A stretch of 64,000 nucleotides of DNA from Sarea resinae (taxonomy: Eukaryota): NCBI GenBank assembly GCA_026026165.1, contig JAPEUD010000050.1, forward strand, positions 1-64,000. The letters run 5' to 3'. The translations under genes and the position numbers were made by a program. Shown here piece by piece: positions 25,488 to 64,000 of this stretch (its first letter is position 1; the number at the start of each line of letters is the position of its first letter). Below the pieces are notes generated by a model. It made no database searches. It saw only the letters and a list, made by a program, of their open reading frames with translations, and was not told the origin of the DNA.

Positions 25488-25763
25488 CTACCCATCCTTC
25501 TTTCCTGTTTCGTCTCGTCTCCTCACATGCGTCCTTCCACCAGCATCGCGCCCTTCCACGGGCACATAGCCACACTGCATGAGCAATGTATCAAACGCTT
25601 GAACCTCTCTCGCCCTGCGGCACTGCGGACAGGACTGCGGGATAGTATGTCTCTGCTCGATAATTCTGCATGGAAGACGGCCCTCGTAGTAGTTGCGGCA
25701 GTAGACGGGATTCTGTCTGACCAAGTGGTTGCAGGCATAGAAGAGTCCGATGAGCTGGCACAT
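25488..25763 (-). CDS. Small Cys-rich putative metal-binding protein (MC-x8-CNH...CPxC type), 91 aa
   Basis: True ATG start (GAT ATG TGC). Sequence MCQLIGLFYACNHLVRQNPVYCRNYYEGRLPCRIIEQRHTIPQSCPQCRR... shares its Cys/Tyr/His register with the ORF at 63000-63224. Confidence 0.65.
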   Translation of the reverse strand: MCQLIGLFYACNHLVRQNPVYCRNYYEGRLPCRIIEQRHTIPQSCPQCRRAREVQAFDTLLMQCGYVPVEGRDAGGRTHVRRRDETGKKDG

Positions 25764-26356
25764 ATCCGCTCACAGAAGCTTGCGTAGGCAGATGGTACGC
25801 TTGGTCTGGGGAGATTTGGTGGGTGGTCTGCTCTAAGCTGTTCGAGGAGCGTGCAGAGTTGAAAGTGATCTTCCGCAAGGTAGAGAATGTCGGTCTCGAT
25901 GGGATTGAGTTGTGAATTTATTTGATAGATGGAGAACCTGGCCGTGATCTGATCTCGCTGAGAGGGAAGGAGTGACTGCCTACTTTGCCATGGTATATAT
26001 TCACTCAGCATCAGGGTGGAAGTCTGCCTTCGTGATATTCCTCAGTGTGAGTTCAACCTTGTAACGATGTTCGCCGTGTCAGATGTGCATTGTTATTCTG
26101 TAACAATAAAAACATCTCACACCAACCTTGAACTCGCTCCTGTAGCACTTCGAGGCCACATTGTCTCTCGAGGGTAACAGAATGAAAACATGCTGCCACT
26201 CGAGGATAGGAGATTGAGAACTCCACAAGCAGAGAAAGAAACAAGCTGAAGGAGAGATTGTAACACGTGTAGTCACCAACGTTTGAAGAAAGACCATGAT
26301 CGTGCAAGAACGGAGCGCTTGCAAAGTCTATTATCGTAAATCGTTCCTATATTCGT

Positions 26357-27352
26357 CTACTCCTCAGTATACAGATGCTCGTGCAGGATCCAGTCCCTGA
26401 CTCTCTCATTGACTAGCTTGCCCAGTTCCGCTTCGTCTCGTCTCTTGGACGCCGCCCTCACTTTTGTCGAGCTGATGATCTCTTCACCCTCGGTCCTGCC
26501 CTCGACCAGCTCTATCCGCTCAGCCCACTCCCGCTTCCCGCCTTCCTTTTCGCGTCCACCTTGGGCCATCTGCCGTAAAAAGTCCTCCTGCTCTTCTATT
26601 GATCCCCATGAGTCGTCGGGACGAAACGTGGCACGAATCCGATGTGCCTGCAGAAAGGGCTCCAAAGGCGCAAGCGTGTGCGTTGGAGAATAGTATTTGG
26701 GGTCGAAGATGCGCGTGAGCGTGTCATAACCCGTCAGCCAGACCTGTTCCGGAGAGCTCGTCTTCGGCGATTCAGCGTCGACGGCAGGTGTAGTGTAGAC
26801 ACTTGAATCAGAGATGGCATACGACTTGGCCATAAAGTACGGCTCGCTGGTCAATCCAATGTCGACGGCGGCGGAATGGCACGACGCATGTGTGTGCAGG
26901 TCGTGGGCAATCATGGTCATCATCGTCAAACGCTGTTCAAAGGAAGCAGGCTTTGGAGCTGTCATATACAACCTTGTAAGCATTTATTTGTTGAGCTACA
27001 GCATTGTGACATCTATGGTGCACAAGGCATCGGATCAACCGCATCGCGAGGCAGGCGAACCTTTATCCGCATTTGAAGTGGCTAACAGCAAGAGAAGCCG
27101 TTTTGGCAGTTTTCCCCGGTCATTCTCCAAGGCCGAGACGGCCATCTTGAAGTGGGCCCGGGTGGGAGGATTGAACGAGGAATCAAGGACATAGAGAGTT
27201 TGCGCTGAAGGCGGGGTGCTTGAAGCACCTACGGTGTTGAGCAGTTGAAACTTTGCATTTGAGCTGGCAAACGACCGAAGCGCATTCGTGAATTTTGGCA
27301 AGAGAGCTTGCATCTCATCGAGGTCGAGAGCCTTCTCCGACAGTGTTCCCAT
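26357..27352 (-). CDS. POF1: Nucleotidyltransferase, Pof1-type nicotinamide mononucleotide adenylyltransferase; 2 exons
   Basis: Motifs LDSSFNPPTRAH, LLLLATSNADK|APKPASFEQRLTMM, GYDTLTRIFDPKYY and ISSTKVR. Confidence 0.88.
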
Positions 27353-29598
27353 GTCGTGCAAAGCCAGATCAACAGTCCAATTGTGGCAGGTGGAACAACG
27401 TGACACCTAGGTATGGAGGGGCTGAGGGGCCCATGACGTTGGGGAGCGTTCATGATCCATTAGCAGTGCCATTACGGTGTCCTAGGGGCCCCAAACGCGC
27501 AGGGCGGACGTGGCTTGCACCAGCACACTTTCGGGCGAACCTCCAGCTTCATCTTGGATGAATTGAAAAGCAACCTTGAATATTTGGGAGAGCTGGTGCG
27601 ACAATCAAGTACCAAGCCCGAGTCCTGAAAGAATCAAACTACTTCCTAGACTTCGAACCTCGAGCAGGTCTGCATCGTTCGAGAAGGTGACAAGGTGCGG
27701 TGGGTGCGCGAAAACTGCGTTGAAGGGGCCTTCGAGTGCCACGACAGCTCACGAAATTAAGGGTTGCGGGCAATACGAAGTGAAGCAGAAGTACATGACC
27801 GTGTACCCATGTAAGGAAGGAACGAGAGACGGCAGCAAAGAGACAATTGAAGTCTTGCATGTCAACAGCAACGAAGGCCGGCCAGAGATCAATCTTACTC
27901 GGGCAGAGTGGTCACTTCGTACCCGCCCCTGGTTGTCTGCCAAGTCAGGCGGCAGGAGCGCACTAGAGAACGCCCTCGGCCCTATCTCGCGGCAGACACG
28001 CGACACCAAGGCAAGCCCAAGTGTCAAGTGCGGAGGTCTGCCCTGTTGTCGTGAAACCTCTCATTCGAGATGGCCGACGGTGATGAGATGGGCGGGAGAG
28101 CAGGAAATCTTGGTATGGCTGTCGTTGATAACCGAACAGTGCACTACGTACTCATAGTACACATACGGAGTACAGCACAGCATGGCATTTATGCAGGCTG
28201 CATTATTGATACAGTATGAACTCTACTACGAAGTAGGGAGGAGTCAAGTCTCTACCGCGGCGCCTATCAGTCGGTCGTGGTCGTCTCCTGCTCTAGCTCG
28301 GGAGAACAAAGGACGTTGAAGGGTCTAACGGCGACGGATCTTCGTTGGCCTCTGATGATCCCATCCAGTACCGAGATACCCAGCTGGAGGTCGAGTCCAG
28401 CTCCCCCATCGGTGTGCACTGACAGATGAAGGTCTGATAATTCGCTGTGGTGGAGTCCGCACACCGTCGTAGAGTACCACTAGAGATCCATCTGATTGAA
28501 TCGCCATCTGTCGAACGATACGAAGACCAAGATGAAGGGTCGAGCAGCAGCGCTGAGCCATGCCGAGCCCACTGCCAATGCCACCACTCGACTAATAGTA
28601 CTTTTCTGTCCTCGGCGTACTCGAGTAGTGCCTGTCCGGGGCGTGTTTGGGCTCAGGGTTCAGCACCAATGGGGACAGGAGAAGGGTCGATCGAAATGCC
28701 ATGGCACTGCAGGTACGAAGGTTACTACTCGATGAGCGCAGAGTACACGAACTAAACGAGAGTGGCCTCCCCTCGGGCCTCGCAGCGTAGGACGAATAGC
28801 GTCACCGACAGCGCCGGCCTACTGGGCGCTAAGCGGCCAAGATGGCTCGAGCAGCACCAAGGCCACCAGGAAGCCACCAGGAACACGGCGAACACCATCA
28901 CGAACACCAATGACACCGCGTTGCCGTAGCGTCGAGTAGAGGACAGTACTCACGAGTAGAGTAAACACGCTGCAGCACCCCTTTCCCCCTGCCCCCAATC
29001 CAATCAGACCGCCGCTTCAGACCCTGCACTAGACTCCCTCCGCCGTTCCGCCCTGGTCGTGAGGAATTGGCGGGCTCAGGCCTACGCAGCACAGGTACCC
29101 GCCTCCGCCAGCACCGCCGTGTCGATACATGGCCGGTGGGACGTAATATCGATTAGGGGTCCCGATCAATGTTCCCGCAATTTGTGCCTGAATGCTAGCA
29201 CGCCCCCTGCCCGCGTCCCAACTGTCGTCGACCCTTTTACTCTTCTGCCTCTCGTTCCCCCGTGCCACTGCCTCTCCTCTTCCTTCCTGCTCGTTCTACT
29301 CTCACCACTGCAAGGCTTCAGTTCTTGAACCACTCTTTTGTCTCTCTCGTAGGGATTTTCGATCTTTACCAAACTACAGTCACTCTTTACAGAGATCAAT
29401 CTCTGCGGAATAGATTTTCGCTCACACTCATTCACCCTCACGATCGCGTCCAATCCATCCAAAGTGCATCGCACACGAATCCCCCGACTTTTTAGGTGAC
29501 ATTGACTGTTTGGCACCTGCCTCGACATCAATCCATTACCTATCCAATCCAACACGCGAAGAACCCTTTCTTTGAACAGGATCCATCACTGAATCAAC

Positions 29599-30701
29599 AT
29601 GCGTTTCCTCCAATCCGTCGCATTCGTTGCGGCCCTGGCCACGGCCACTGAGGCTCACCTGCACAAGAACCAACATGTGCACCGTCGTGGCTTTGGCAAC
29701 GAGACCGCTCCCGCTTCCACCAGCGTGGCTCCACTGACCACCTCGACCGTCTACTCCACCCAGGAGATCACCATCACCAGCTGTGCTCCGACCGTGACCA
29801 ACTGCCCAGCCGAGTCGACCAAGGTCGTCACCTCGGTCATCGCCGTGTCCACGACTGTCTGCCCCGTGGCCGAGGCTGAGAGTTCGAGCTCAGCTGCTGC
29901 CGCTGCCAGCTCTGCGGCTGCTGCTGGCACCTCCCCAGCCTCGATCGCCGCTGGCTCTTCTACTCCCGTCTCCACTGCCGTCAGCAACTCGACTTTGACC
30001 TACACTCTTGGCTCCGGCTCCTCGACTACCGTTGTGACCACCACCATCCAACACACCTCTCTGTTGACTGAGACGGCTGTAAGTGTAAAATCAATTTTGC
30101 TCTGATCAGCTCACTGATTCATCCTTAGACTGTCTACGCTACCAAGCCAACTGGTTCCGCCTCATCGGCAGGTGCAGCGGGCGTCAGTGGAAGCCCAACC
30201 ACGACCATCTCAGCTACCTCGACCGCGACCAAGTGGGTCACTGTTCAACCCGTTTCCTCGGGCGCTGCAGCTTCTGGCTCAAGCTCTGGCTCTGGCTCTG
30301 GATCAGGCGCAGGCTCCGGCTCCGGCTCTGCCTCCCCATCAGCCAGCTCAGGTTCCGGATCCGGCTCAGGCTCGGGCTCAGGCTCTGGCTCTGGCTCAGG
30401 CTCTCCGTCAGGCAGTGGCAGCACCTGCCCATCTGTCGCCACCGTGACCGTGACCGCCCAACAGACCGTCACTGTCGTAAGTAATTCCACAATGTTATTG
30501 CATGATTCATAGCTGATAGCCATCCAGACTGCCACCCCCGTCGGTGCCCAGAGCAGCACCTATACGCCTATCCCCAGCGCCAGCTTTTCCAGCGCTCCCT
30601 ATGGCAACGGAACCTACTCTACCTCCACCGGCGTTGCCAGCACCGGCTTCATCACACTCCCCTCTGGCGCCCCAACCGGCTACAGCAAGCGCTACTATTA
30701 G
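29599..30701 (+). CDS. Secreted Ser/Thr/Gly-rich cell-surface protein; 3 exons
   Basis: Signal peptide [19 protein letters not shown] and His-rich pro-segment ending HRR. Contains a [24 protein letters not shown] flocculin-like motif and a (GS)n tract. Introns at about 30079-30128 and 30477-30527. Ends GYSKRYY*. Strong C-ending codon bias. Confidence 0.88.
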
Positions 30702-32897
30702 ACGCTGGCTCCCTCTCGCTCACGCAGATGAATAAGCCTTATCGTGAAGATGAAGTAATTATCGTGCCGAGCGCGCTGGTTTCTATGGCGGATTTGGGAA
30801 GACCTTCTATCTACCTTTAGCTATTCAACGAATGCGAGCTTTTTTGTGGACTATATCACTTTTGTGTATCCAAAATTCTATTCTTCTATACAACACTTTC
30901 TTCTTTTACATACGAAAAGCGGCAGGCGGTTTGAAAGCGAGTGAACATCTTTCTGGCAAAGCGGTTCGTTCTCACCTTTGGGCCTTTTTCCCTGCGCGCG
31001 TTTGTATTTTTTTTTTCGCATTGCACGCACGCGACATGATGACCATCAGGCATGGGCGGAGTCAAGTCAAACTTGTAGTGGGCACCTATCTCTCGGAACA
31101 TCAGGGAATCAGCCTCCTTTTTTGCTTTCTTGCACTGTGGCGGAATGGGAGGGAAGGAAGGAGGCGAAGAGAAGGGGAAAGGGGGTGGGTGTGGAGTAGA
31201 GGCAAGGCAAAGGAAGAGATGTAAATATGGTTACTTTACTTGCATATCTTCGAACCCCGTTTTCCCCCTTCAACCCGGACAACGTTTCTTCACCTCATTT
31301 ACCTTTTGCTTGCATCGGTGCTCCCATTCTCTCTCCGTTTGTTCACCCTTGGTCAAGCCAACGAGGAACTAGGGGAGGAGTTGGAACGCGGCCGGTGCCT
31401 GCCTGCCGGCCGGCCGGCCTGGCTGCAAGCAAGCGTGCGCCAATCGCGAATTTACATTCTTGTATGCTATGGGTTTTTGAGAGAATCCCAGCACCCTTTG
31501 CTTTCACTGTTCGACGTCTTTTGGAGAGCATCCCCTCGATGTCGTGGCCCGCGTAGAATCGTCTCTCCAGGTACGTCTTCTCTTTGGGTGTTGAGTGTGA
31601 TTCATGTGCCGTGCACAGTAGAAGATGCTGTGCACGGCAACTCTACGATGAGTGCCTATGTACTATGTACTATGTATGAATGCGAAGCGTTGCACCTTCC
31701 GGGTAGTGAGTAGTCAGTCAGTCACGACCTTATCCATCTCGAGGTTGCCGCGACGGTGGTTTCGGGAGATTCGAGATCGGAAGAGCATGAGCACGCGAGG
31801 TCGCACTTCTTCTGTACTTCGTAGGGTACGCACGCAGTAACGCTGTATGCCCGAGGCTGCTCGCCGGCAGCCTCGTCTGTCCTCGGGCCTCTGATAAGGA
31901 AGAGCGCCCTGTATTCAGTGCTCGGTACGTATGGATGGATGTGGCACAGCACACAGCACACAGTACTCTCATATGGAGCAAGTGAGGTATCTGCAAGTAC
32001 TGCGTCGGTCGGTAGGTACCTTCCCTTGACCGCGCCATCCATGTCCGTCTGAGACGGCGGTTGCTTCTGATGCGCGGATTCTCTGATCCTTTGCGCATCC
32101 GATCTTCATAGCTGTTCCAACGTGGTCATGCTACTGTCTGTTGTTCTGTTGTTCCGTTGTTCTGTGTTCTGTTGATATGTCGATATGTCGATATGAGGTT
32201 GTTGAATGCGTACTAGTCTGGTAGGCTGGCAGGCCGAATGCAGTCAAGCCGTCTGTCATGTTCCATTTGATGCTTCTTCTCCGGATTTGTTCTGTCTCCA
32301 AACAGCCCTGGAGGTACCACTTACTCCTCCTACTGCGAGTACGAATACTCATAGTACGCTCGACTACTCGCGACTACTGCACGGTTCTCGCCCTCGCTGA
32401 CACTTGACACTTGACACTTTACTGCGACCGGCCATTTGTTCGTCATCATCCGCCCGCATCACTCAACCCGTCCACCTTCCTCCTCTTCCTCCTCCTCCTC
32501 CTCCTCCTCCTCCTCCTTTCCTCTGTCCTGCATTCAGCGTACGTGCCTCTGCCTTGAGGCGTCGTCTTCTTCTTCGTTGGTTTTTCTCATCGTCGTCGTC
32601 CTCGTCGCCAACTCTGTTACGCTTCGATCCGGACGTATCTCACTGGACGCTCTTCTTATCTATCCACACCTATCCGACCCTTTGCAACGCATCTTCTCTC
32701 CTGGCGCCTCTCGATCTCCTGGCCATCTTGCTACGAAGCTTCCTGCTTTGTTTATACCCTCACGTGTTTCTTATTGCGTTCAGAGCTACGACAGCCACCC
32801 GTCGCTACCATCTCTTTTACCGATCGCGAACCGGCCTAGCTATCATCCTACCGCAAACGATCCACAAAACTCGACACCACTACATATATCCGTCAAG

Positions 32898-35800
32898 ATG
32901 GCCCCCGTCCCTTATGACGGAGACGTCGAGTTTCTCGATTCCAACCTTGCTTCTCTCGATATTCCCGAGGATGATGATCTTTTGATGGATAACGGGGAGC
33001 CCGCCCGCATCCTGACACCGCCTGCTCGCATCGCGGCACGTTTCTTCCGTCCTTCGAGCGACCGCCGTAAGCCCTCTGCTGCTTCATCGAGGCGGAGCTC
33101 GGTCTCGTCGGCGCACTCCCATCACTCGGGTCGCTCGATCCGTGACAGTCATCAGAGTGCCTACGTGGCACAGCATCTCCGACGGGCGTCGATCCTCGAG
33201 AACCGCAAGGCCCGCCTGGCCGATAGAGCTGCACACGCTGAGAAGGTTCGAATGAGGGCTGCTATGGCCAAGGCTGGTACCAGACCTTCAAACACGGAAG
33301 AGAAAGCCCTGGCCGTACAGCAAGCGCGTGAGAAGTATCTGGCCCAAGTGGCGGCTGCTTGCGCAGAGGAGGTCAATCGCGCCAAGAAGATTGCAGAAGA
33401 TATGAAAGAGAAGAAGGCTGCAGAATTACGCAAACTGAGAGGGGATATGGAAGAGAGACTCGCCGAAGCGGAGAAGAGACGACTCGAATATAAGAGAAGC
33501 CCGAGAAGGAGCAGGACCACGAGCTTACCCGCAATGGAGGGTAAGAAGGTCGCGAAAGACCTCATCGCCTCACTGAATGACGATGTGGCCGCCGTGAGGA
33601 TTCAGAGAGCTTGGAGAAGCATGCAAAGGGGTCGCGTGATCAAAGAGTTCCTCTCGCTTGGTCTCTCGATTGAAGAGATCCGAAATACGAGCTTCGAAGA
33701 TGTCGGAGCACTCTTGTCGGAGGACAAGGTTATATCGAGCACTGCCAAGGTCCTCAAGCTCTGCGGGTTACAGGACGTAGGGGGAGGTGCTGTTGAAGAG
33801 AAAGCTGCTGTGCGGACCTTCCTCAGCGCCTTCCTGATCTTAGGGCACCCCACGCAGGTCTTGAGCAATGATGGCGAACAAGAACAAGTAGGCGCTGATT
33901 TCCTCCATTCGAGAGACAACTGCTAACCGCTGTTATTCAGGACCTGATCACGAAATCGAAAGATCTCTTAATCTCATTTGAACACCTGCTGTCACGATTG
34001 GCACCAGGAAATAGCTATACGCCTCCGCCTATGCCGCTTGAATCACTGGCTGAAGCTTATGGTTCGTTCTGCACGGCCTTCACGGCATGGAAAGTCAGGG
34101 ATTCTAGCACTCTAGTTCAGATCATGCTCGCGCAGTACGTGCAGCTAGACCTGATTTGGCAAACGGTGAAGAACGATACTGCTGGTGACGTTGCTTCTGA
34201 TTATCGCGAGGGAATCAGAGAGAACCAGATCATGTTGTTTGCGAGGATCAAGAGACTGGCTGGTTCGGAGAGGTGCAAGACCATGATCACCCACGCCATT
34301 CGCGAGGGTCGGAGAGAAGCCCGCGCAAAGGCAAAGAAGCGGCCTACTGGTGATAGTAGGCCAAGGGCGACAGTGGAAGTTCCATCTAATGCTAGCCGAG
34401 TGGAAGCTTCTCACCCCGCCGCAGAAAGACCTCCCCCAGTGGAAGTGCATCCGGAATTACAAGGACCGCAGCTTCCATCAGATCGTCAATCGATAGAGGC
34501 GGCAGAGTTGACCAGAATATTCTCATCTCTACCAGATAATAGAACATTGGTACATGAGCTAGCTATCAATAAGGAGTATCGGATCGATCCGACGCCGAAG
34601 ACCGAGGTCATCGAAAGCATCAACAATGCTGTTTTCAGCAGCATGAGAAGTGATGTCGAGGCTGGATTTGGAGACCGCTGGATCGTGGCTATGGCAGAGA
34701 ATATCCGGGCTAGACTCCTGCGACTGCTCACGCCCGGCAACTCTCTGCATACTCTCATATCGGAGGCGCTCGATCCCGCTGTGGTTCAGAGTGAGTGCAA
34801 CAAGGGAAGCTTTTCTTACGAGAAATTCTTCTCCTTCATGCTCTCCATTCTTCCTAGGCTCTGTGCACCAGTCCGTGACTCGGACATCAAGGCTCTGGCT
34901 GAAGATGAAAGTGGGGACGTTATCGACCGGCTAGCTAGGCTCATGCATGTCATCGATCTTCTTTCTCTCGACTTTGCCAATTTCCTTCTTCAAGAGTCGG
35001 CCCCTGGTCTGATCGGTCAGGCGCCGGAATACGAGCGGAACAGATTTGCTCAAGATCTCGATTCGAAAGTCATCAACCTGCAACGAACCGAGCGCTGGTG
35101 GAGACACGCGCAGATCAAAGTCTCCGACGAGGCCAGCAGACGAGACCCGGAGGGCCTCAATCTTCCCATCAACAGACCCACGATCACGCAAGTGTACATG
35201 CAAGGCCTTGCCGATCTCTCCATTGCCACCTCTCCCCTTTTAGCCATAAATCTTCCGGATACCCTCAATCTTGACAAAGACCGTATCATACGCATCCGCG
35301 GCGACGTTCTCACCATCGTCGCCGTCGGCGCCATCATGCTCACGGCTAAGAATCTCCTCAAACGCGATGTTCGCTCCCAATGGAAGCCAGAAGCAACGCG
35401 CATCTGGGACCTTCTGCGCTCGTGCGATCCCAGCACCACGACGAGTACAAGTACCACTCCTTCAGAGGGACCCCTGAGCCTCCCCTCCGATCTCACGTCT
35501 TTAAGCTCTCGCATCCTCTCCATTCTCGAATCCGCACACGCCATGCCCGCGCCTACCAAATCCGCGCTCGGCGCCACCATCTCCCGCGTCCTGACGGAAG
35601 CCCGCACCACCTCCACAGCCGCATCTCCCACCGGCTTCTCCCACCCCGTCCTCAAACTGCTATTCCAACGCCTCAAGACCCACGTTCTTCGTCGCTTGTC
35701 GGCCACATCGGCGGGCGAAAGAGTCCGAGCCGTCAGCACGGCCAGCGAGGGGCTTGCTGCCAGCGGGTTGCCAGAATTTATACCGCAAATTGGAAGCATT

Positions 35801-36712: not shown

Positions 36713-36736
36713 ATGGCGTCCATGGCGTCCAAGGGC

Positions 36737-42840: not shown

Positions 42841-45449
42841 CTATCTGCGCCTTCCGCCCCATTTCGCTAGCGTGACACTCCAAAGGTCGTCGACGAACGT
42901 TGGTATCTCTTCGGGCTCGACGCCTGCTTCGCCTTGCGTTCCCATGGTCGTCATCTCGACATCCAAGTCTCCTCGGCTGCCTCTCGAGCTCACGTCCACT
43001 GTGACTTCTTGACTGACCATGATACCCCCAAACGGACGAGACACAGACGACGTGACCAGGCCTTTCTCAGATGACGACTCTGGCTTGACACGGACACTGG
43101 AAGTCCTGGAACCCGGGTTAGAGAAGGGCCAGAATGAAACACCACGAGTGGGAGATGGATACGAAGTAGTCTGCAAGCTGCTCCTCTCGGACCCCGATTT
43201 CTTATGGTCCACAACGGGAGCAAACTCTCGATGGATCTGGCGAGAAAAGATCTCGTGGTCTATCGAATGTGCATAGCAGTGCTGTTGGCATTGGAACAGA
43301 GTAAGGGGAGTATACGCCATTCTCCCTAGGGGGGCAGACTTCGCCGACAGATGCGCTTCAGCTATGTAGAAGACGATCAGTGTCGCTTGATCGGGCATCA
43401 TGTCTTCTCTGAAATTTCGGCACGGCGCCTGGATGGGTCTGGACAAGAGCGTAGCGTTCATGAAGAGCGGGTCGTTGATCTCTCTCGCGAGCGCGGCTAT
43501 ATGGTCATAGAGCTGCCTTGCAAAGGTGGGATATTTATGGTATTTTGTGATTGACCTATTGCGGAGGAAATCAAGACAGAGATGAACCGAGAAACCATTC
43601 ATCTGTGCGAGAAACTCCATATGCCACAAATCAAGGCTTGCCAGAGGGAGTGTGGTGGTTGGAATCAAGTTGGTGGCATCTTTGCGGACCAGGATTTCGA
43701 ATGTCTTCGTGCGCAGCGGGCGCAGAGCGAAGCAGGCCAAATGGACTCCCTGTTCGAGAATTCGAGGCGCCTCGGAATACTCGCGCATACCGTCAATGCG
43801 CTTGAGCAAGTCCTCCCGAGTGACTTGCATGCTTCTGGCGAGAATGTCAACGACATTGTGAACAGCCGCGAACCGAAACCCTGACGCCTGAAGTCGGGCC
43901 GTTTCAGTCCTCGAAGCTCGACGGACAACGAAGAGGAGTTGACCTCGTCCAAATAGGATCGGTGGCCCTCGTTCGAGATCAAGAGATGGGGTGCTCGAGC
44001 CGCTCCTCAGTCGGCCCTTGTTTATATACCGGCCATGAGTTGTGGTTCCAGTCACCATAATCTCATCATAAAGTACTCCAATGTTTTCCAATGGCTCCTT
44101 GATAGTCTCCGCCAATTCCGAAGCAGCGACGCAAAAGAGCTCCCGGATGATGATTGAATAATCTTCGATGCCCTCCATTGCTTCCGCGTCGGGCGAATGA
44201 TCGGAAGTTCCTGGTCGAGAACTCTTGAGTGCAGATGACGCTTGGAGATGGGCTCGCATGCCGGGAATGAGTTCGGCGACACCGCTCCAATTTCGAGTGA
44301 CTCGGAAGATCCAAAGAAAGACAGGATGGGCGACACTGAAGACATCGTCCAAGGACTGCGAAAATCGTCAGCAATACGTCGAGAAATTCAGCCTCGTTTA
44401 CCTACCCGTTCAAGAAATGTATTGGTGATTTTATGGCTCGGTAAAAGTCCCTCGGGGGTAACCATCAGTCTTCCTTCAGGATCGAAAGTTGCGCAGGCCA
44501 AGACCATCTGCTGCGCTCTATGAGCAGACTTGGTTCTCCGCCTCTGCGCCAAGCCAGCGGAACCCAAAAGAATGACGCTTGAAGCGAGTGCCTATCGTGC
44601 GGTCAGCTTAGCATATATACCGGATGACCAGGGTGGCAGCCCACCAGAACCACCACTACAATCACGGTCTGCGAACTCGAGATCCTATCCTGGATATGGC
44701 CTGTGCGCTTGAGTCGGTACTGAGTGCCTACCGATGCGACCCAATGCATGCCGGACACGGCAGTTGCGAGAATACTGGCACACACCACGCGCTTCCACCA
44801 GACGTTGGTCCATGCGGCCCTCAAGACAAAAAAAATACTCAATGCCGCACTACTCGCCAGCACCGCAATGATCGCCGCTCCCATGACAAATGGCCACTGG
44901 TACTCGCAATGGTAGTTGGCGATCCCCTGCTGGCCCGTGTAATGCATACCACAGATGGCGGCGCCGGTGACGAACCCGCAGCAAATCAGGCGCAACTTGA
45001 CGACCTTTTCGTTGACCCCCACAAGCCAGAAGGCCACGGGCAGGACGACGATTGGAAGAAAGAACGAGGCCGCTGTATATCCGGAGCTGTAGGCTATCTG
45101 AAGTTCTGATTCACCATTTCCGAGAACGATGGCACGATTGCCGATAAAATGCATGCTCCATATGGCGATGCTACCCATTGCGACAGAAGAACCACCCAGA
45201 AGGAACCTATGCCCAGTCTTGTCAGTCCGGGTCATCTTTCGGTGTTGGCTATTTTCATGGCCGAAGACTCAAATGGTTTAGATGAACGCACCAATTGTAC
45301 AGGCCTTTCCCTGAGGTCAATCTAGCGAGGAGCTCCACGGTCGTCCATGATCCGATATAGCTGACCAGATACGACATAAATACGAGCCATGGCTTAAACG
45401 ATCGCGGCACGATATGGCCCTCATAGGAGGCAAGATCTGATACATTCAT
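42841..45449 (-). CDS. MHYT-domain integral membrane sensor protein with a long cytoplasmic C-terminal region; 4 exons
   Basis: N-terminal multi-TM region with MSYLVSYIGSWTTVEL and three MHYT-type motifs (AIWSMHFIG, AICGMHYTG, AVSGMHWVA). GT-AG introns join it in frame to the 503-aa ORF at 42841-44352. Confidence 0.9.
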
Positions 45450-51766: not shown

Positions 51767-54113
51767 TCAATCATCATTCACAGCATCCCGCCATATCGCC
51801 TCAGCAGTCTTGAGAGCGCGTTCCCTCTCTGAGATCTCCTGCTGCTCCATCGATTTATAGAGCTCGACGGTGGAGTTCCTCAGGGCCTCCTCGTCCAGTA
51901 AACCGAGACCGGCTGGGTTGCGAAGCTCACCTAGGACCCTTGTCCCTCCGAGCACGCGAGATGGGACCGGGGATGGGCAAGTTGATAGCGCGAGTGGAGA
52001 TGGTGTGGGTGGAGTGAAAGATTTGGATTCGGGTAGTGGGAATGAAGAGGGAGCATTGGCTTTGATGACGGACTCCATGGCTTGGACTTGGTCGCCGGCG
52101 AGTTCCTCTGAGGCTAAGTCCTCAGCAACTGACTCCTTGAAGCTAGAGGTTTCCTCCGAAGCTTCGATGCCAGTAACTTCCTCCCCAATCTTGACGGTAG
52201 AAACTTCCTCGGACGCCTTTCTGTTTCGAACTTGGCGTTGGTCTTCGAGGATCATCTGCCCGAGGCTAGAATGCTGTTCTTTCCTCAAAATTGGACGCTT
52301 ATCGATTCCGTCGAAGATGGGTAGGGGTTTACTACCAGTTCGAATACCCTTGCTTTCGTTGCCCCTCTTCTGATTCGTCTTTGAGCGCTGTGACCGAAAA
52401 AGTGAACCAAATTCTTCCTTGAAAAGACTCTTTCTAGCCTTCTTTTTGGGTTCGGCCTTATCAGCTTCGATAGTCAGCGATCCAGGCTTCGAACCAGGCT
52501 TCTTTGGACTTTGGTGTACCACCGTGACGGGGCTCGAAGTACGCGTGTTCTCTGATGACTTCTCAAGGAGCGGTGTCTCGGGAACGGAAACTTTGGCCCC
52601 GGATTCTTCGGAAGACCGCGCCGAATCAAGGAGTACTCCATCGTCTGTACGCGCTTGTGGGTCTGCGAAGATGTTGGAATTCTCTTTAAAGACTGGCTCA
52701 TCGTTCGCGCGAGCGCTCAATGTCATTAACAGGCGTGAGCTCCAACTCTTTACGCTAGATGTCAGACTATTGCTCCGCGTGATTTGCGGATGATGAGGGC
52801 CAGGCCCACATTCTAGCTTGTTGAGCTCGGAAACTTTGCGTCTGACGTAGCCAGCATTTTCACCCGCGAGCTGAAGAAAGCTTTGTACTGACGATTTCCT
52901 GATAGACCCATCCCTTTCGCAGTGGTCAGAGTCTGACAGGTTCCTGAACTGGTCCGACATGAGGGATGACTGTGAGGCGAGACGCTGTGATATGCGCATG
53001 TTGTAGAGATGGACCGACGAGGTAGCGGCATGACCACGGCTATGAACGATGGTTTCGGCCTGACTCGAGCGCACGTCTTCGAATCCGGTGACTCTAGCTA
53101 GCTCATGGACGTCCTCTATATCTCCCTCTAACTTATGAGCATCCTTGGACAAGCTAGTTCCTTGAAGACGGCTCTCTTCCAGCGAGAGTTTCCATTCGCC
53201 TTGTTGCGATACTCTAGAAATACTTGGCAAGCGATAGAAGTCCATTGGTGGTGTTGAACTAAAGCGAGCAGGCTCAGGTAATATCGCAGGTGAGAGTTGC
53301 TCGTTGCACAGTGGGTCAACTGCAGTAGCTTGGGATGAGAATGTCCTAGAAGTCAATCTTGGAGGAATAAAGGCCGTGTTAGGCATTCGCAGCGAAGCGA
53401 CTCCTGTGTTCAGTCGAGTTGAACCCATCAAGCTTAAAGCCTCGACCGGCGTAGGTATGAATTCGGCGTCATTGTCATACCCTCCAAGTTCTGCGCTTAC
53501 GTCGGATAGAATCTCCTCCTTTCGTAAACGGCCGGGTTTTGGTCCCTGCGTTCCTGCGATTATGCCAACATTTTTACCACGCTTTCCCGCCGCTTTTGCC
53601 TTGGCACTCTTTTTCGAGATCTCAGAATCCCGTGACAGCCTCTTGCGGACCTTTGAGTTGAGCTCACGTATTTTATGTGCGCTCTTCCTGTGGTTGACCT
53701 TCTCTTTTGGGCTTTTGATCGACTCTTCTGGATTCAGAAGGGTTATGGGAGTCATCTGATATCCAGGTTCGGGCGAAGAGCCATCAAAGATCCTCTGAAT
53801 CACAGAAAACTCATCACTGCTGTGAGATGCATAGCCATCTTGGATCTCTTGAGTAGAGGATGGATCCAAAAGCCGACGAGCCTGAGGAGCGCGAGTTCGC
53901 GCATTAGCAGGAGGAGGGGATGGGCTCTGATCCCCACAACAACCACAAAAGACAGTCATATCCGCACTTTGGTTAAAATATATATAAGAGTGTCAGTCAA
54001 CAAGCCTGCTGCTGTTACAGCGAGACATGAGATTGAATAGAAAGTCTTTATTTGGTGAGATTCCTTTTGCGAAGATAGCTGAGTAGAGGATGCTGTGTTT
54101 ACAAGATTGACAT
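51767..54113 (-). CDS. Hypothetical, largely disordered ~735-aa protein
   Basis: 730-aa ORF at 51767-53959. A probable short first exon (ATG TCA ATC TT|GTAAAC at 54113-54103; branch CTGAC; acceptor AAG at about 53967) gives MSIFADMTVFCGCCG. No domain recognised. Confidence 0.72.
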
Positions 54114-55231: not shown

Positions 55232-55542
55232 TCGCTTGTTCTCTCTGTCCCCTCGTCCCACCAAAACTAAGCCCCACCATCGATAGAATTACCACCTTTG
55301 ATTCATCCTACAACCTTCCCCCCCTCTTCCGAAAATCAATCCTCTCTTCTTTTTTCCCGCACCATAACCACAGCATTGCCCAGAGTCTGATCATCTCGTC
55401 AGACCCATTTCCATTGTCGATTCGATCAGTCTAGGTCGAGCGACTGCACTCTGAGAGTTGGAAAGGAATCTTACTTCCAACCAGAGTAACGATATTCTTA
55501 CGAAGAATCCCCAATCCCGTCCGACCTCGTCACTTCTCCACG

Positions 55543-58103
55543 ATGGTCCAATCGTAAGTTGAACTTGGTTTTGACTGCCTGTCCTGATCGTCGAACTCTG
55601 CTGATGATCCTACAGATCTATCCTCGGTTTCCCCCGCATGGGTGTGAACCGTGACCTCAAGAAAGCCACCGAGGCCTACTGGGGTGGGAAGCTTTCACAG
55701 GCTGACCTTCTTGCTGAGGGGAAGAGACTCCGACAAGAGCACTGGAAGATCCAGAAGAATGCTGGCGTTGATATCATCCCCAGCAACGACTTTTCGTTCT
55801 ACGATCATGTCTTGGATCACATTCAGCTCTTCAGCGTAAGCCAATCCATGCCTCGAACTTTGGGACTGAATCTAAATGTGTGACTTCCGCTTGTAGGCTA
55901 TCCCTGAGAGATACTCTAAGCACAAGCTCGACCCCATTGACGAATTCTTCGCCATGGGCCGAGGACACCAGAAGCCTTCCAAGGATGGCGCTGCTGCTGT
56001 TGATGTTCCTGCGTTGGTACGTGCTTACAGGTCTACCATTATCAAGGACGATCTCTGACTAGTTCAACAGGAGATGGTGAAGTGGTTCGATTCGAACTAC
56101 CACTACGTCAAGCCTACCTTCCAAGATGGACAGACCTTCAAGCTTCAATCCAACCCCAAGCCTTTGGCCGAGTTCCTCGAGGCGAAAGAGGCTGGTGTCG
56201 TCACTCGCCCAGTCGTCCTTGGACCGGTCTCATTCCTTGCTCTAGGCAAGGCCGATCGTGGACAAACCGTTGATCCGCTTTCCCTTCTTGAGAAGCTCCT
56301 GCCTGTTTATGAAGAACTTTTGGCCAAACTCAAAGAGGCCGGCGCTGAGACAGTTCAGATCGACGAGCCTGTTCTGGTCTATGATATTACACCGAAGGTC
56401 AAGGCCGCGTTCAAGCCTGCATACGAGAAACTCATCAGCCTTGGCGGCAAGATTCCCCAGCTTGTCCTTGCAACCTACTTTGGAGACATCGTCCACAACT
56501 TTGATGTTCTTCCTCATCTCCAGGGCCTTTATGGTCTCCACATTGATCTGGTCCGCAACCCAGAGCAGCTTGAGACGGTGATCGGCCAACTTGGTTCAAA
56601 GCAAGTGCTCTCTGTTGGTATCGTTGACGGTCGTAACATCTGGAAGACCAACCTCAAGCGAGCCATCGAGACGGTCGAGACCGCAGTGCAGAAGCTGGGC
56701 AAGGACCGAGTCATTGTTGCTAGCTCAAGCTCCCTTCTACATGTCCCTCACACTCTCGACAGTGAGAAGAAGCTTGACGCTGAGGTCAAAGATTGGTTCT
56801 CCTTTGCTGTGCAAAAGGCCGACGAGCTCGCCATCATCGCCAAGGCTGTTACCGATGGCCCAGCAGCTGTTCGTGAGCAACTTGAGGCTAACGCCAAGTC
56901 TGTCAAGGCTCGTGCGGAATCGAAGCGCACGAATGACCCCAAGGTCAAGGATCGCCAAGCCAAAGTCAGCGATGAGATGTATAACCGCAAGTCACACTTC
57001 CCCACGCGATATGCGGAACAGAAGAAGCACCTGGATCTGCCACTATTCCCCACCACCACCATTGGTTCCTTCCCTCAAACCAAGGAGATTCGTGTCCAGA
57101 GGAACAAGTTCACCAAGGGCGAGATCTCTGCCGAACAATATGAGAAGTTTATCGAGAAGGAGATTGACGAAGTCATCAAGGTCCAGGAGGACCTAGACCT
57201 TGATGTCTTTGTCCACGGAGAACCTGAGCGAAATGACATGGTCCAATACTTTGGTGAGCGTCTGACAGGTTATGTCTTCACCACCCATGCCTGGGTCCAG
57301 AGTTACGGTTCGCGCTGTGTCCGCCCTCCAATCATCGTGGGAGACATTTCACGGCCCGCCCCAATGACTGTCAAAGAGTCCAAGTATGCTGCCTCGGTGG
57401 CCAAGAAGCCCATGAAGGGTATGCTTACTGGACCGATCACCTGTCTGCGATGGTCTTTCCCTCGTGATGATGTTCACCAGTCCGTGCAAGCTCAGCAGCT
57501 CGCGTTGGCCCTTCGTGACGAGGTCATTGACTTGGAGGCTGCCGGTATCTACGTCATCCAGGTTGACGAGCCAGCTCTCCGTGAGGGTCTGCCTCTGCGA
57601 GCTGGTCTCGAGCGTGAGAACTACCTCTCGTGGGCTGTCAAGTCGTTCCGCCTTTCAACCGCCGGCGTCAATGACTCGACCCAAATCCACTCTCACTTCT
57701 GCTACTCCGAATTTCAGGATTTCTTCCACGCTATCGCAGCGTTGGACGCAGATGTCCTTAGTATTGAGAACAGCAAGAGCGACGCTAAGCTGCTCAAGGT
57801 CTTTGTTGACGAAGCTTACCCACGACACATTGGTCCTGGTGTCTATGACATCCACTCGCCTCGTGTCCCCAGTGAGCAGGAAATCAAGGACCGCATTGCA
57901 GAGATGCTCGAGTAAGTTCAAATTCTATCTACCCTTCCTAGCATGTAGTCTAATCCTCCGTTAGGTACCTCAAGCCAGACCAGCTCTGGATCAATCCCGA
58001 CTGCGGCCTCAAGACTCGTCAATGGAGCGAGACTAAGGCTCAGCTCACCAACATGGTGAACGCCGCCAAATTCTACCGCCAAAAATACGCCAAGTCCACT
58101 TAG
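55543..58103 (+). CDS. MET6: Cobalamin-independent methionine synthase; 5 exons
   Basis: [76 protein letters not shown], the zinc ligand motif HFCYSEF, and [11 protein letters not shown]. Confidence 0.99.
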
Positions 58104-58918
58104 AAATACCACAATGGCTCAAGGCCACGATGATGTATGATGATGATATGAGGACGATGTTCAACAACAGCATGGCTTGGTGGGGATGGCATTTTCGTGG
58201 TCTTTTGGACGACCTGATCTCAACATCGGCGTTTTAGTGAGCGGCTTCGAATTCGGCTCTTTTTTTTCTCAAAAGTTCTATCCCGGTGCGTTCAACAACG
58301 CAGCGCTTGCTTGTCTTGGCAAGCGAATGGCCCCTTGCTCATCCAGGGATGTTTCCATTGAAGGCTTTAGAGGCCTTGCTGATGCAGGGTGAGAGAGACA
58401 CGTCTCTGAAGTCCTGTAGACTCGTAGATAGATACATAATATCAAGTCGCGGATAAGTGATCAGCGCAAGGTTGAAGATGACAATGTGTACTGCAAGAAT
58501 GCGACATGAGAAGCTGTAGAGGAAGCTTCTGTTGGCCTTGGGCGTTCGAATCAACCCGATTGATATCCATATACGGTAGCCGAGTCCACGTTAGACTGGG
58601 AACTGCCGCGTAATACTTATTCCGGCATGTCGCTCGCTCCCGTCAACTCCCACTGCAATGTTTGTTTAGTCCCCACGAGGAGACGTCCATGCCATCTCCG
58701 TATCTGACCGCATCGACTGCCTAGTCGGCCCTTGAGAGTTGCACGGTCGAAGGCGCCACATGTGATATCAGATGGAATCTCACTCTCCTCGGATCCGGCG
58801 CCTACGCTCTTTGATCGCTCTTTCGACGTGATTTATTACCGATTCTCTTCATTGTCGCTCCTTGCATTCGTCCTGCTTTGTACAAGATACCAGGGTCCGC
58901 GCACCCGGGGTGACCTCG

Positions 58919-61589
58919 ATGCGTTCCTCAATAACCTCCAGACTGCGGGGCTCCTCTCTCAGCTCGGTCCCTCCTGCACAGGATTCCTCCAACTATTCTA
59001 CTTCGCTGGCCAGCCTTGCAGCTCAAATCCTCTATCGCTCGCCTTTGCCCTCGAAAGACGGCCTCCCGATATTCGTTCTGAACGCGGCCGCCTTTCCCGA
59101 CGCCAAAGATGTCTACTACGATGCTTTGCTACCGTACGTTCTTTCGAGGTTACCTGGCGAAGATGAATTGATAGGGGGGAGAGGATATGAGGTGATTTTC
59201 TTTGCTAGCGGAGGTGGTGATGGCCCCACGGCCGCGAGAAAAGGGCGACCGGGTTGGGGATGGTTCGTTCAGGCATATCATGTCCTGACCCGGGCAATGC
59301 GAAAGAGATTGCAAAAGCTATACATTGTGCATGAGCGGAGCTGGGTTCGGGTATTGGTCGAGATGTTCTCGACTATCGTGAGCCCAAAGTTCAGGAAGAA
59401 AATAGTCCATGGTGAGTAGATAGAGACTATAGCAGCTAGCCATCGCTAACTAGGAGCGGCCAGTATCATCACTCACGAGCCTGGCCCTGTATCTACCTAT
59501 TGAAGACCTCCTGATTCCGCCATCGGCGTATCTTCACGACAGGCGTCTTTCCCCCGACATATATGCTCCTTACGTCACTGGCAAAAGGGCATTTGCAGCG
59601 AAGGAGCCGTTGCCTCGAAACGTAGCCGGAGAACTCAGGCTACCAAGAGTGCTACGAGAGACCTCAGCTTTCGTTCTGATGGATGAGAATCCCAAAACTG
59701 AGGGTATCTTCAGGATACCACCCCACTCAAGACTGCTTAATATCCTTCGGGAAGCCTACGACAGAGGACAGAAATTTATCGTCTGGAAAGAACAGAATAC
59801 TGTTCTTCCTGCCTACGGCATTGGGAAGGGCACGACCATTGACAAACTCGACATTGAGGAAATCAAACGAACGGACGGCTACGGGGTCTTGCTTGCTGCG
59901 GGACTAATAAAGCTGTGGTACAGAGAACTCCTCAATCCTGTCTTTCCACAGCATACATATAGGGAATTGGTGAACGTGGCAGGCCGTGAAGACGAAACTA
60001 TTGAGCAGTCTCGACTGGTAGAGCTCTTCTCTCCACACTCGCAGTGGTCGGTACTCCCGATGAGCTCTCGGCTGATTGTCACGAGGCATCTACTACCCCT
60101 TCTCTCGAAGGTCGCGAGTTTCCAAGAGTACAATCAAATGACTCCTTTCAACCTTGCCATTTGTTTCAGCCCTGCTCTCATCTGCGGACCGGATCCTGTA
60201 GAAGATGCAAAGATTAACGGCATCCTCTGCCGAGTACTTGAATCGGCTATTCAGCAATGGGAAGAGGGATTAAGAGAGGCTTGTGGTGTTGAAGCAAGCA
60301 TGTTCGACCACGCACTGCAGGGGCCTCCGAATGATGATGATTACGAAGATCCGTTGGAGCCAGAGCATCGGACCTCGGCGATCGATAACGCAGACGCATT
60401 TCAAATGCGCGACAATGGCCTTGAGAGTGGCGTAACTATGCAAGAAGCTGACAAGAAACCGCCGCTTCCCTACCGGTTCCACCTGAAATCCGATGAGAAG
60501 ACCGACATTGATGATATCAGGAGGAAGCCGGCACCGTCGTTGAGTCAACCTCCTCGCTACTCGATGGTGATCGAGGATGGAACTTTGCTACCGGTATCAC
60601 CTTCTAGCACGTCAACTACTTCGGATAGTTTCCAAGGCCCGACGCTGTCAATCACGGATTCGGACACAAATCCCGACATCAGAATCGCCACTATTGACAC
60701 TGTCGACACCCATGATACCGAATTGACTCCCTCCCCCAAACGAAAGCCAGTCAAGACAGAACAAAGCATCGAAACAGCTTTCGAAGGATCAGAAGCCCGC
60801 AGGCAGCGAAAAGCCAGTGATCCAGGACCCATCAGCATCAAGAGAAAACCACTCCAGCCTCCTTCCCCGACAGATCCTTCCCCCGTGCATTCAGTGGCTT
60901 CTATATCATACAGCACCGAACTCTCGGAATCTCTGGGCAGAATAATGCAGAAACAGCGTTCAGCCAGCGAGCGTTCCAACGCACCGCCACAACTACCAAC
61001 ACCCGAAATCTCCGTCGACGGCAGCAACGACGAAGCCGAATTCCTCAAACCAGACATCCCGGCTGTTGACCGCGGCCGAGCGCGCTCCCTCTCCAAAGTC
61101 CCAACTATCCAGCGCCTGGCCCAGCCCATCTATCCTTCATCCTCGACGTCCTCGAATCCGTCCCGCTCGACCTCGACCCACAATACGAGCAGCGCATTCA
61201 CGACGCCCTTCACGACGCCCTTCAACACCACCACCAACTCCTCAACCTCGTCATCTCTCCCCGCGCCCCACTTCCCCAAAAAGCGCGTGCCCTCGCCCGC
61301 GCTCACATCACGCATGCCTTCGCTATCCTTTTCCAACAACACCGACACCAACACGAATGATCCCGGCACAGAAACCACGGCGCCCCCGCACCGCTCGAAA
61401 TCCGACGCCGGGCCTCTTTCCTCGCGGCTGCCGCCGCCGCCCAGACGGCTGAATCTGAAGCTCGGTCAGGGCTCCGTGGATGATCTCCGGAGGCTGTATG
61501 AGGAGAGAGCTAGGGCTGCGGGATCGTTGGTCGAGGCTGGGAAGGGGTCCGCTGGTGGTGGTGGTGGTGGTAATGTAGGAGGGAGATGA
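58919..61589 (+). CDS. RhoGAP with N-terminal divergent CRAL-TRIO (BCH-like) domain, Ecm25-like; 2 exons
   Basis: N-terminal LPIFVLNAAAFP...YEVIFFAS...LQKLYIVH..WVRVL...SPKFRKKIVH. RhoGAP arginine finger EGIFRIP, KLWYREL and NQMTPFNLAICFSPAL. Pro/Ser-rich tail. Confidence 0.9.
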
Positions 61590-62240
61590 GGGTGATGGTT
61601 GGTGTTGATAGATCGTCATATAGGGGAATGGGGGGGTTGCTTTGCGGATGGATGGATGCACGGCTGCTGCAGTGGGGGACAGACGGGGCATAGCGGATGG
61701 TGTTCCAGGCCCTTCCACGATTGGATCGTCTTTCTCTCTTCTCTCTTTCTCCTCTTTCTTCTCCTTTTCCCTCCTCCTTTTTCTTCTCCCTTTTCCTTCT
61801 ACCTTTCTTGTCCCCCATTGGTCGGTTCATTCTCGAGCCCGCGTCCGTCCGTCCGTCCGTCTGTGGGTGGCCAAAGGGCTAGATCTAGGTTGAGTTGAGG
61901 TGGTCTGATTCGGTTTGGTCTGGTTTATTGTTTGGGTAGGTTGGCTGTTGGGGTGCTTTGGGTAGTTCTTCGGTTTTCAGCAAAGCAGGCATTTACTTAG
62001 TATAGCGAGTGCGTGAATGCCAAATCGTTAATAGTATTTACTGTTTATGACTTTTACTTGTTTACTCTGCAGACCGTACTACTGTTGCTACTGCTGCTGC
62101 TGCTGTTGCTACTCCTCCTCCTCCTCTTCCTCCTCCCCATCGTCCCCCTCCTATTAGACTCAACCACTACTAGGACCACCTCGAACAGAAGTGGGCAGGA
62201 TCATCCTCTCGACCGGAGAATAGCTGGACAAGGACACGTG

Positions 62241-62274
<34 letters not shown>

Positions 62275-62999
62275 TTCTTGCTACTTTCTTCACGTGAGGA
62301 TTTCTAAATCGGTTGTTCTCAATTGGATTCAAGATGACGGATCCGAAAATCTAATCTGATGGATGGATGATTCTATGTGCAAATACCCCGCTAAGAAAAT
62401 GAAAATGAAAACGAAAACGGCACCAGACGAGACGAGATGAGACGAGACGAGAGAAGACGCCTCCGCTAAACCGGTCAAAACCTGGGGACGTAACGAGAAA
62501 TGTGGAAAAGTGAAATCTAAACTGTAGGCCATGAAACGTGAACGGTGAATCGTTGACCCGTGGACCCCGAATGGATTGGGAGGAATTGAAACCCGTGAGT
62601 GAGCAATGCGAAGACCGAATGGATTGGACAACCAGACAAACAAATTGAGGAATAGGCAAATTGATCGACGAGGGCTTTGGGGAAGTGGAGAAAGAGAAAA
62701 GACGGAAAAGGAGAAGAGGGCATTTGGCTGGGATTTAAGCTCGGGCTTGGCTTTGTGTGTCTTTTGGGCTGAGTCCTTTCCTTTCTGTTTTGGTTGGATG
62801 TGAGAAGGTGTGAGGGGGTGAGGGTGTGAGTGCGGTGGTGATGATGACGAAGATGTATGCGGAGAAAGGCCGCGGTTATCCATGGAGAAGACTGTAGCTG
62901 TAGATGGACGAGGAAGGGGTGGAGATCGCTGTCATGGACGCCTTGGCTTCCGCCTCCTCCGGCATTTCTGGATCGACGTCCCTTTCAGCCCTCAAGAAT

Positions 63000-63224
63000 T
63001 CACAGCTCCTCCAAGCCCCACTCCAACGTGACGTCCTCGCTACACTCGGGACAATAGTAATTGCTCAGGCCCGTACACGTCGCCTGCAGATTCCGACACA
63101 TGTCGACGGACCACGAGTCCGCGCTGTGGGCCGACAGCGTGTGGTTCGGGCAGATCTCGATCGTGTGGTCCCAGATGTACGTGCTGTGGTTGCAGCAGTA
63201 CCACGAGTAGGTGTAGGAGCACAT
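63000..63224 (-). CDS. Small Cys/His-rich putative metal-binding protein (MC-x8-CNH...CPxC type), 74 aa
   Basis: ATG in good context (AAAC ATG). Canonical 5'-UTR intron at 63323-63258 (GTAAGT...GCTGAC...CTAG) and TATAA at about 63425. 8 Cys and 4 His in 74 aa. Confidence 0.78.
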   Translation of the reverse strand: MCSYTYSWYCCNHSTYIWDHTIEICPNHTLSAHSADSWSVDMCRNLQATCTGLSNYYCPECSEDVTLEWGLEEL

Positions 63225-64000
63225 GTTTCTTGTCTCTTTGTTGCCCGGGGAGGATCTCTAGAAGGCGGTCAGCTTGGGCGAATCGTTGGACAGATAACAA
63301 TCGGAGCTGCTGTGGAGACTTACGTATCTATTGAAGTGCACAGAGTTCAATTCCTTACACCAAAGCCCAGCTGTCGAGAGGATTGAAGTCAAGGCCAAGC
63401 TTCCGTTCGCTTCGAGTCCTTCTTATAAGCTCTGGGATGCTGGTTCTAGACTGGTAGATCCCTTCCCGATTTAACTGCACTTAGATGCGAGTGGAGTATG
63501 TGGAGTATGCGTCAATGTGTAGGTCGGCGGCTGACGGGGTCGAAACTATGTATGCGCGAGGCACAATCAAAATGGAAAAGCGGCTGTGGTATATCGACCA
63601 GTGAGAGGTGTCCACGATAGATATGAAGGGCCGCAACGAAGCTATGCAGCTGTATATGTATGTGCGGATTTTGTATGTATGTATGTATGTAGGTAAATAT
63701 GCAAAAGTGCGCGTCCTGTGAGGATAATAATGAGTGGCTGAATGGCTTATTAGCTGAATATATCAATGGACCGTGTGAAGAGCTGGCCAAAGTGGCAGCC
63801 TCATTGTGGTTATATGCTGATATGCAGGGTCCATCCACTCTCTTGTCATGATTTGTCGAGTCGAGGGACGTGAGGCTGTCGGAGCTTCTTCGGACGGGGG
63901 CACCCCGTCCTACGTAGTCAGCCGCTGGCGGACCGAGTAACGAACAAAGCAAATGCATTGCATCGCATTGCATCGCGCCACTTCTTCTCCGTGTGGAGAT

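Follow-up and report, generated by a model that had tools for sequence, protein, structure and literature searches.

A 64,000-nucleotide stretch of the Sarea resinae genome (GenBank assembly GCA_026026165.1, contig JAPEUD010000050.1, positions 1 to 64,000), here called the window, contains two small open reading frames (ORFs) that share a Met-Cys start, a Cys-Asn-His triplet and a CPxC motif, which raises the question of whether they belong to one protein family and what such a module would do. P0003 is a single-exon ORF of 91 residues (25488..25763) in which a seven-ligand Met-Cys module is followed by a 40-residue basic and charged tail; P0004 is a single-exon ORF of 74 residues (63000..63224) from an eight-ligand clade with an acidic C-terminal tail. 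Both lie on the minus strand, which a preliminary description of the locus had left unstated. Judged by the full motif, read in one open frame, the two ORFs are members of an unnamed Pezizomycotina Met-Cys family that is real and uncurated. Our best explanation, to which we give a probability of about 0.62, is that both belong to one family of small intracellular metal fingers, in which a cross-braced two-zinc domain would act as a protein-binding adaptor.

The residues that the preliminary description had claimed (M1-C2, Y9, C11-N12-H13, the spaced cysteines and CPxC) are all present in both translations. M1, C2, Y9 and C11-N12-H13 are common to the two proteins; downstream, P0003 exposes C22, C32 and C45-P-Q-C48, and the P0004 counterparts are C25, C43 and C58-P-E-C61. 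A count of six cysteines plus one histidine, proposed for both, holds for the P0003 core (residues 1–55; 25599..25763, minus strand), whose ligands are C2, C11, H13, C22, C32, C45 and C48, but not for P0004, which has eight cysteines, not six. The extra ones are C10 and C50, the latter an eighth conserved ligand, giving the translated set C2, C11, H13, C25, C43, C50, C58 and C61. The full protein motif, M-C-x8-C-N-H...C...C...CPxC, occurs twice in the window versus none in 60 windows simulated with an order-3 Markov model, and its DNA anchor occurs twice versus a mean of 0.01 over 100 shuffles. Direct similarity between the two ORFs is slight (BLASTP, 6/13 identities, E 0.007).

A larger family had been suspected behind the two copies, and the Sarea resinae genome (class Sareomycetes; 25.5 Mb in 143 contigs) does contain at least 14 intron-free members and a fifteenth, L015, that is intron-split. 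The anchor M-C-x8-C-x-H is found 34 times in the genome versus 10 for reversed-pattern controls, and 14 of the 44 distinct x8/x9 anchors are followed in the same open frame by the rest of the full motif, where 0.12 are expected, placing the motif above chance in the genome as in the window. With an x7 spacing, none of five anchors reaches the full motif. Because members were counted by DNA pattern, these numbers are minima: the scan misses members with an intron inside the anchor, and its x9 part was limited to purine-purine codons at position 12. Family members follow the pattern M-C-x(8-9)-C-x-H-x(7-11)-C-x(4-28, once 143)-C-x(12-21)-C-x2-C, range from 48 residues (L005) to 277, and always carry the module at the N-terminus; 13 of the 15 have seven side-chain ligands alone. 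Exact protein records exist for two of the 14 intron-free members, P0004 and L157b, the latter identical to the Sarea resinae hypothetical protein P0052; other gene models could conceal some. The suggestion that gene finders overlook such genes is thus supported by 12 of the 14, which have no exact protein record, and wrong for P0004, which is already recorded in NCBI nr.

P0003 and P0004 are not each other's closest paralogues. The nearest paralogue of P0004 is L169, which lies on another contig and aligns over 64 columns with a probability of 96.5%, with the same spacing and the eighth cysteine; local duplication was rejected as the origin of the pair on this ground. By their sequences, the two ORFs are old members of different clades, one with seven and one with eight ligands. 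L169 itself (1321-1539, minus strand, contig G000:C80) is an unannotated 73-residue paralogue of the P0004 clade and shares its acidic tail. Pairs of members within 40 kb number three versus 0.33 expected, and two when the selected window is excluded (p = 0.04). Two very different members, L007 (1312-1539) and L157 (324-707), lie 1.5 kb apart on the minus strand of G000:C55, and L003 and L033 are 35 kb apart on C1.

Tails differ widely between members: they are acidic in P0004, basic in P0003, long and charged in L011 and L023, and CaaX-like in L028 (1501-1791, plus strand, G000:C61), which ends in Cys-Val-Val-Ser; by the motif rule, this end suggests that one clade is prenylated and targeted to membranes. 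In L010 (973-1539, minus strand, G000:C76), a Pro/Ser/Thr-rich insertion of 143 residues separates the fourth and fifth ligands, and the loop at this point therefore tolerates almost any length.

The eight-ligand clade can be followed well beyond Sarea resinae. A phmmer search with P0004 returned 36 matches at E ≤ 0.001, and its relatives group at 90% identity into three clusters, with 135, 50 and 8 members, that cover Curvularia, Lasiodiplodia, Phyllosticta, Verruconis, Eremomyces and Lophium, all labelled hypothetical, uncharacterized or unnamed. The P0006 cluster (135 members, among them Curvularia, Lasiodiplodia and Didymella) represents the same 74-residue protein as P0004, and 37 orthologues of exactly 74 residues, a set from which three of other length were dropped and whose cluster members are not independent, are 57–68% identical to it. 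M1, C2, Y9, C11, H13, C25, C43, C50, C58 and C61 are invariant in 37/37 of these sequences, and because all eight ligand positions are among them, the clade has eight candidate ligands; position 10 is Cys in just two of the 37. In four more distant relatives (P0011, P0029, P0030 and P0036) His13 is replaced by Cys, a swap typical of zinc ligands. For P0003, the ESM Atlas returned 30 feature matches, all unnamed and sharing no common family, the top three being Ascomycota clusters at 0.90; these look-alikes of about 80 residues come from clusters of 55–117 members. The earlier remark that MC..CxH..CxxC proteins occur in filamentous ascomycetes as hypothetical proteins is therefore supported by the Dothideomycete and Ascomycota Atlas clusters. 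These clusters lack a name, a Pfam family and a function, and no source consulted joins the clades into one family.

Prokaryote genomes gave 115 pattern matches, near a rough chance value of ~130; 12 were open in frame and one was family-like, a 61-residue full-motif ORF (L300) with non-coding, eukaryote-like flanks that is probably fungal contamination. None of 16 pattern matches in viral contigs was in frame, and phage records gave none. A metagenome contig of 42% GC holds a full-motif member of 51 residues with the P0003 ligand spacing and no exact protein record (L103:592-744, minus strand). Of 54 candidates, a search using the alignment of 12 members brought back one, the L157b protein of this same genome, and did not widen the family. 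We found no description of such a family in a literature search in which subscription journals were mostly outside coverage and supplements were not included.

The P0004 gene has the composition of a coding sequence, with a G+C content of 0.90 at third codon positions and a codon score that exceeds those of 98% of random stretches. Its 5' untranslated region is predicted to contain a 66-nucleotide intron (63323-63258, minus strand; consensus GTAAGT...CTGAC...TAG), and 63600-63225 contains no upstream ATG; position 63323, which the preliminary description had given as the end of its feature, is the GT donor of this intron and lies outside the ORF. A TATA-like element is inferred from the sequence further upstream (63422..63428, minus strand), and another about 230 nucleotides upstream of the P0003 start (25994..25999, minus strand). 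The database orthologues P0007 and P0048-P0051 share an insertion at one site in the region of residue 18; this is probably intron sequence left unspliced, with no counterpart in the Sarea resinae gene. Among the matches listed, RNA contigs left the P0004 ORF uncovered (one run, 0.08 of words); contigs of that run cover 62335-62988, directly downstream of its stop. They are ~95% alike to this non-coding stretch, which separates the RhoGAP gene from the P0004 stop, contains a short GACGA repeat and is possibly a long 3' untranslated region of either gene.

The Met-Cys start is a defining feature of the family. Position −3 is A in 13 of 14 full-motif members, P0004 among them, versus 7 of 30 other anchors (Fisher p = 1.7e-5). 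A genome scan with the ATG left out of the pattern gave seven matches, four of them open in frame, and in all four Met precedes the Cys. The same holds for 34/34 P0004 relatives with the N-terminal motif, which 13 of the 47 proteins lacked, and the Met-Cys is kept in 9/9 N-extended gene predictions among these relatives. The −3 bias, the ATG-free genome scan and the 34 relatives together indicate that the ATG before the Cys is the real start. In an ATG-free scan of metagenomes, the matches listed comprise at least 115 stretches, of which 35 were open and one of these 35 had Met before the Cys; among the same listed matches, two of 115 (L103 and L144) read as family, both after Met. The other 34 open stretches read as Cys-rich low-complexity sequence or off-frame noise; the scan speaks neither for nor against the start rule.

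AlphaFold2 modelling of P0003 residues 1–55 with 12 aligned members gave a mean predicted local distance difference test (pLDDT) of 82.4 and a predicted template-modelling score of 0.54. The model contains a three-stranded sheet (residues 2–9, 14–17 and 34–41) and two helices (23–27 and 46–53). Its best overlays are on zinc-binding Fur/PerR/Zur dimerisation domains (Z 3.4–3.5), followed by small ribosomal chains (Z 2.2–2.8) that we take to be bL31; Fur clusters also appeared when the Atlas was searched by structure with P0004, at template-modelling scores of 0.36–0.38. If ungapped, the overlay of residues 1..53 on PerR (2fe3) 88..144 would put C45/C48 on C136/C139, as read from its end points. 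In the accessible part of PMC4866751, PerR C136/C139 are two of its structural zinc ligands and the other two sit on a hairpin turn; by the same end points, C11/H13 of P0003 would fall at this hairpin-turn position. The likeness to the Zn(Cys)4 site of Fur/PerR/Zur, and to bL31-type sites, lies in ligands on a hairpin turn together with a CxxC that precedes a helix, but the family has C-x-H rather than CxxC at the turn, and those proteins lack an N-terminal second site. There is also no Pfam FUR match for either ORF, and the proteins, of 74–91 residues and beginning at the metal module, lack the combination of a winged-helix DNA-binding domain and two CxxC motifs that marks the Fur/PerR family. 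The resemblance, drawn from these overlays, is one of analogy, not membership.

Within this fold, the reading we favour would work as follows. Methionine aminopeptidase would remove Met1, as is established for Met-Cys starts, and the chain would fold into the three-stranded sheet with a metal, most likely Zn(II), pinning each end in cross-braced order. Site A would comprise C11/H13 on the hairpin turn and the CxxC (C45/C48 in P0003; C58/C61 in P0004); site B, at the opposite end of the sheet, would comprise C2 and the two middle cysteines (C22/C32 in P0003; C25/C43 in P0004). The fourth site-B ligand would be C50 in the P0004 clade and a non-side-chain group in seven-ligand members such as P0003, namely the Cys2 alpha-amine, water or a partner. 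The exposed sheet would then bind a partner, with the clade-specific tail setting partner or location. Zinc binding and two-site ligation are predictions for both P0003 and P0004; the metal-ligand role of the Cys/His set, putatively assigned in the preliminary description, is strengthened by the His13-to-Cys replacements and by the P0003 core model. An adaptor role seems the most likely function because catalytic and DNA-binding hallmarks are absent and the tails are very different; it is the weakest step of the explanation.

The Pfam, PDB sequence and fold searches assigned the family to no characterised domain. Neither ORF exceeded the Pfam cut-off, the best hits being RUBY_RBDX (E 0.083) and CoiA_N (E 0.0021), both on the CxxC alone; 18 aligned members matched 11 Pfam families, each in one member only, and a PDB sequence search with both alignments gave no match at E ≤ 10. 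RING (C3HC4) domains follow C-x2-C-x(9-39)-C-x(1-3)-H-x(2-3)-C-x2-C-x(4-48)-C-x2-C, and the C-x-H followed later by CxxC resembles RING site II. The family differs in lacking the first CxxC, in a His-to-Cys gap of 7–11 instead of 2–3 and in a next gap of 4–143 instead of 2. The RING profile of Pfam matches neither ORF and one of 18 members at E 0.29; the RING fold is not among the matches listed in the fold searches, and a missing row does not exclude it. What the family would share with RING, PHD and FYVE domains is the ligand order, with one metal bound through ligands 1, (2), 5 and 6 and the other through 3, 4, 7 and 8, a cross-brace as defined in the accessible text of PMC7614390.

Several results weigh against the two-zinc reading. 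Apart from the motif, the homology of the P0003 and P0004 clades has an alignment of 28 columns behind it (hhalign 85%). The P0004 AlphaFold model failed (pLDDT 42.6; its Atlas model reached 0.49), and C50 lies seven residues after C43, in a predicted strand, which makes its placement in site B uncertain. The Fur-type overlays are weak, with Z well short of a trustworthy value and root-mean-square deviations of 7.3–7.6 Å, and known by end points only, and a Foldseek search with the P0003 fold gave no match at E ≤ 0.001 in PDB and BFVD, which does not establish a new fold. The Atlas recognition value of P0003 (2125) falls below the bar, making Atlas support weak; P0003 has no exact protein record, no relative was found for it by word search, and 173 metagenome pattern matches yielded none confirmed.

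These last points bear on whether P0003 is a functional gene at all. Only the 74-residue gene would be real if P0003 were a decaying or unexpressed paralogue, as its lack of relatives and of annotation, the G instead of A at its position −3 and a tail whose codon usage is no better than random would allow. Yet all seven ligands are intact in an open frame, the core has a confident predicted fold and its codon-usage score exceeds 95.5% of random stretches. With a leave-one-out family hidden Markov model, P0003 scores 30.9 bits, a value reached by none of 500 full shuffles and by 3/500 shuffles in which Cys, His and Met1 stay fixed (0/500 for P0004), on an alignment built with the targets included and hence somewhat generous. 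A decaying paralogue is improbable on this evidence, and P0003 is probably a real gene, less well supported than P0004.

The seven-ligand count of most members invites a different metal chemistry, in which a single structural zinc site (C11/H13/CxxC) would be accompanied by an open three-Cys or Cu(I)-S3 site, forming a small metal or redox sensor or chaperone. The overlays back site A only, and Cys2 is pinned to the N-terminus, both as such a protein would predict. The eight invariant ligands of the P0004 clade nonetheless make a complete two-site set, and the widely differing tails fit many partners better than one chemistry, so that we regard this arrangement as unlikely. The cross-braced two-zinc finger leaves its own gap at site B of seven-ligand members. 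The group that could most simply fill it is the alpha-amine of Cys2, which would also account for why this residue is fixed in position. In this fungus-specific variant, which we offer tentatively, the free Cys2 amine would complete an S3N site, as in the nickel site of HypB. Folding would then be switched by how the N-terminus is processed: a retained Met, acetylation by NatA or oxidation of Cys2 would open site B. If the amine is a ligand, it follows that the Cys would never move from position 2, and it is kept there in paralogues less than 31% identical. Two points speak against the amine: Cys also stays at position 2 in the eight-ligand P0004 clade, and L015/L144, a seven-ligand clade, begins M-C-D, a NatA-favoured context that, in the accessible part of PMC11199558, human NatA acetylates well.

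Comparable proteins differ from the family. Escherichia coli HypB binds nickel in its CxxCGC motif through the N-terminal amine plus Cys2, Cys5 and Cys7, according to the portion of PMC12284835 available, and so offers a case of Cys2 thiolate and N-terminal amine on one metal with two further thiolates. Its site is square-planar Ni(II), with three cysteines within six residues of a disordered extension, whereas the three family cysteines are widely separated within a folded domain. Churchill (CHURC1) resembles the family as a Met-Cys-starting zinc protein with an exposed β-sheet (PMC7614390, accessible part) and is 0% N-terminally acetylated in human cells (PMC11199558, accessible part), but it is an animal protein with a binuclear cluster and was not returned as a sequence or fold match in the Pfam, PDB and fold searches.

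The Met-Cys start also recalls plant ERF-VII and animal RGS4/5, substrates of the O2/NO-sensing Cys/Arg N-degron pathway that the preliminary description had invoked for Cys2. The start is strict, an ATE1 arginyl-transferase gene is present (PF04377, E 1.9e-29), and the Cys might be oxidised non-enzymatically. Those substrates need PCO/ADO enzymes, however, and an exon-by-exon search of the genome, whose assembly may be incomplete, gave no match to PCO_ADO (PF07847) at E ≤ 1; among fungi such enzymes are limited to chytrids in the part of PMC10092093 available, and the accessible part of PMC3959200 is silent on fungi. Cys2 belongs to the ligand set and opens a predicted strand rather than a free tail, and Ser occupies residue 3 in 28/37 P0004 orthologues, a NatA context in which acetylation blocks oxidation (PMC11199558, as far as available). 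An N-degron of the plant and animal kind is very improbable here.

Two further classes of Cys-rich protein fit poorly. Small size and six or more cysteines that could pair would suit disulfide-bonded, secreted, effector-like proteins, but neither ORF has a hydrophobic leader (by hydropathy only; best 11-residue means 1.67 for P0003 and 0.21 for P0004), the conserved His interchanges with Cys, the CxxC forms a knuckle and the P0004 clade is highly conserved across classes; we consider this the least credible of the alternatives. Metallothioneins contain about 30% Cys in CxC/CC clusters and no aromatic residues, and were rejected, as Cys makes up 7/91 residues in P0003 and 8/74 in P0004, both with many Tyr, Trp and Phe.

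The neighbours of the two genes in the window are ordinary eukaryotic genes by Pfam (FMN dehydrogenase, Tcp11, WD40, MetE and RhoGAP). The gene just upstream of P0003 (26357-27352, minus strand) consists of two ORF pieces with no Pfam match and an HxxH-like motif that presumably resembles a nucleotidyltransferase motif. A membrane domain of MHYT repeats, of the bacterial signalling type, is encoded in a fungal gene at 44603-45235 (minus strand; Pfam E 1.5e-17). Long ORFs without a Pfam match occur at 51767-53959 (minus strand, 730 residues), 42841-44259 (minus strand, 472 residues) and 18588-19838 (plus strand, 416 residues). Run X1 contains an RNA contig that aligns to the MetE gene at 57328-58411 with five differences and skips a 53-nucleotide GT..AG intron (57912-57964); a very close relative was therefore present in that run.

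At least 15 genes in a 25.5-Mb genome thus encode a domain for which we found no Pfam model, solved relative or publication. The P0004 clade has been held at exactly 74 residues from Sarea resinae to five Dothideomycete orders, which points to a function guarded by selection. Motif, start-codon rule and model together offer a direct route to annotating the family. Should the Cys2 amine prove to be a ligand, a zinc-finger fold would be under the control of N-terminal processing, and one filamentous fungus would possess at least 15 of these N-terminal switches, differing in their tails.

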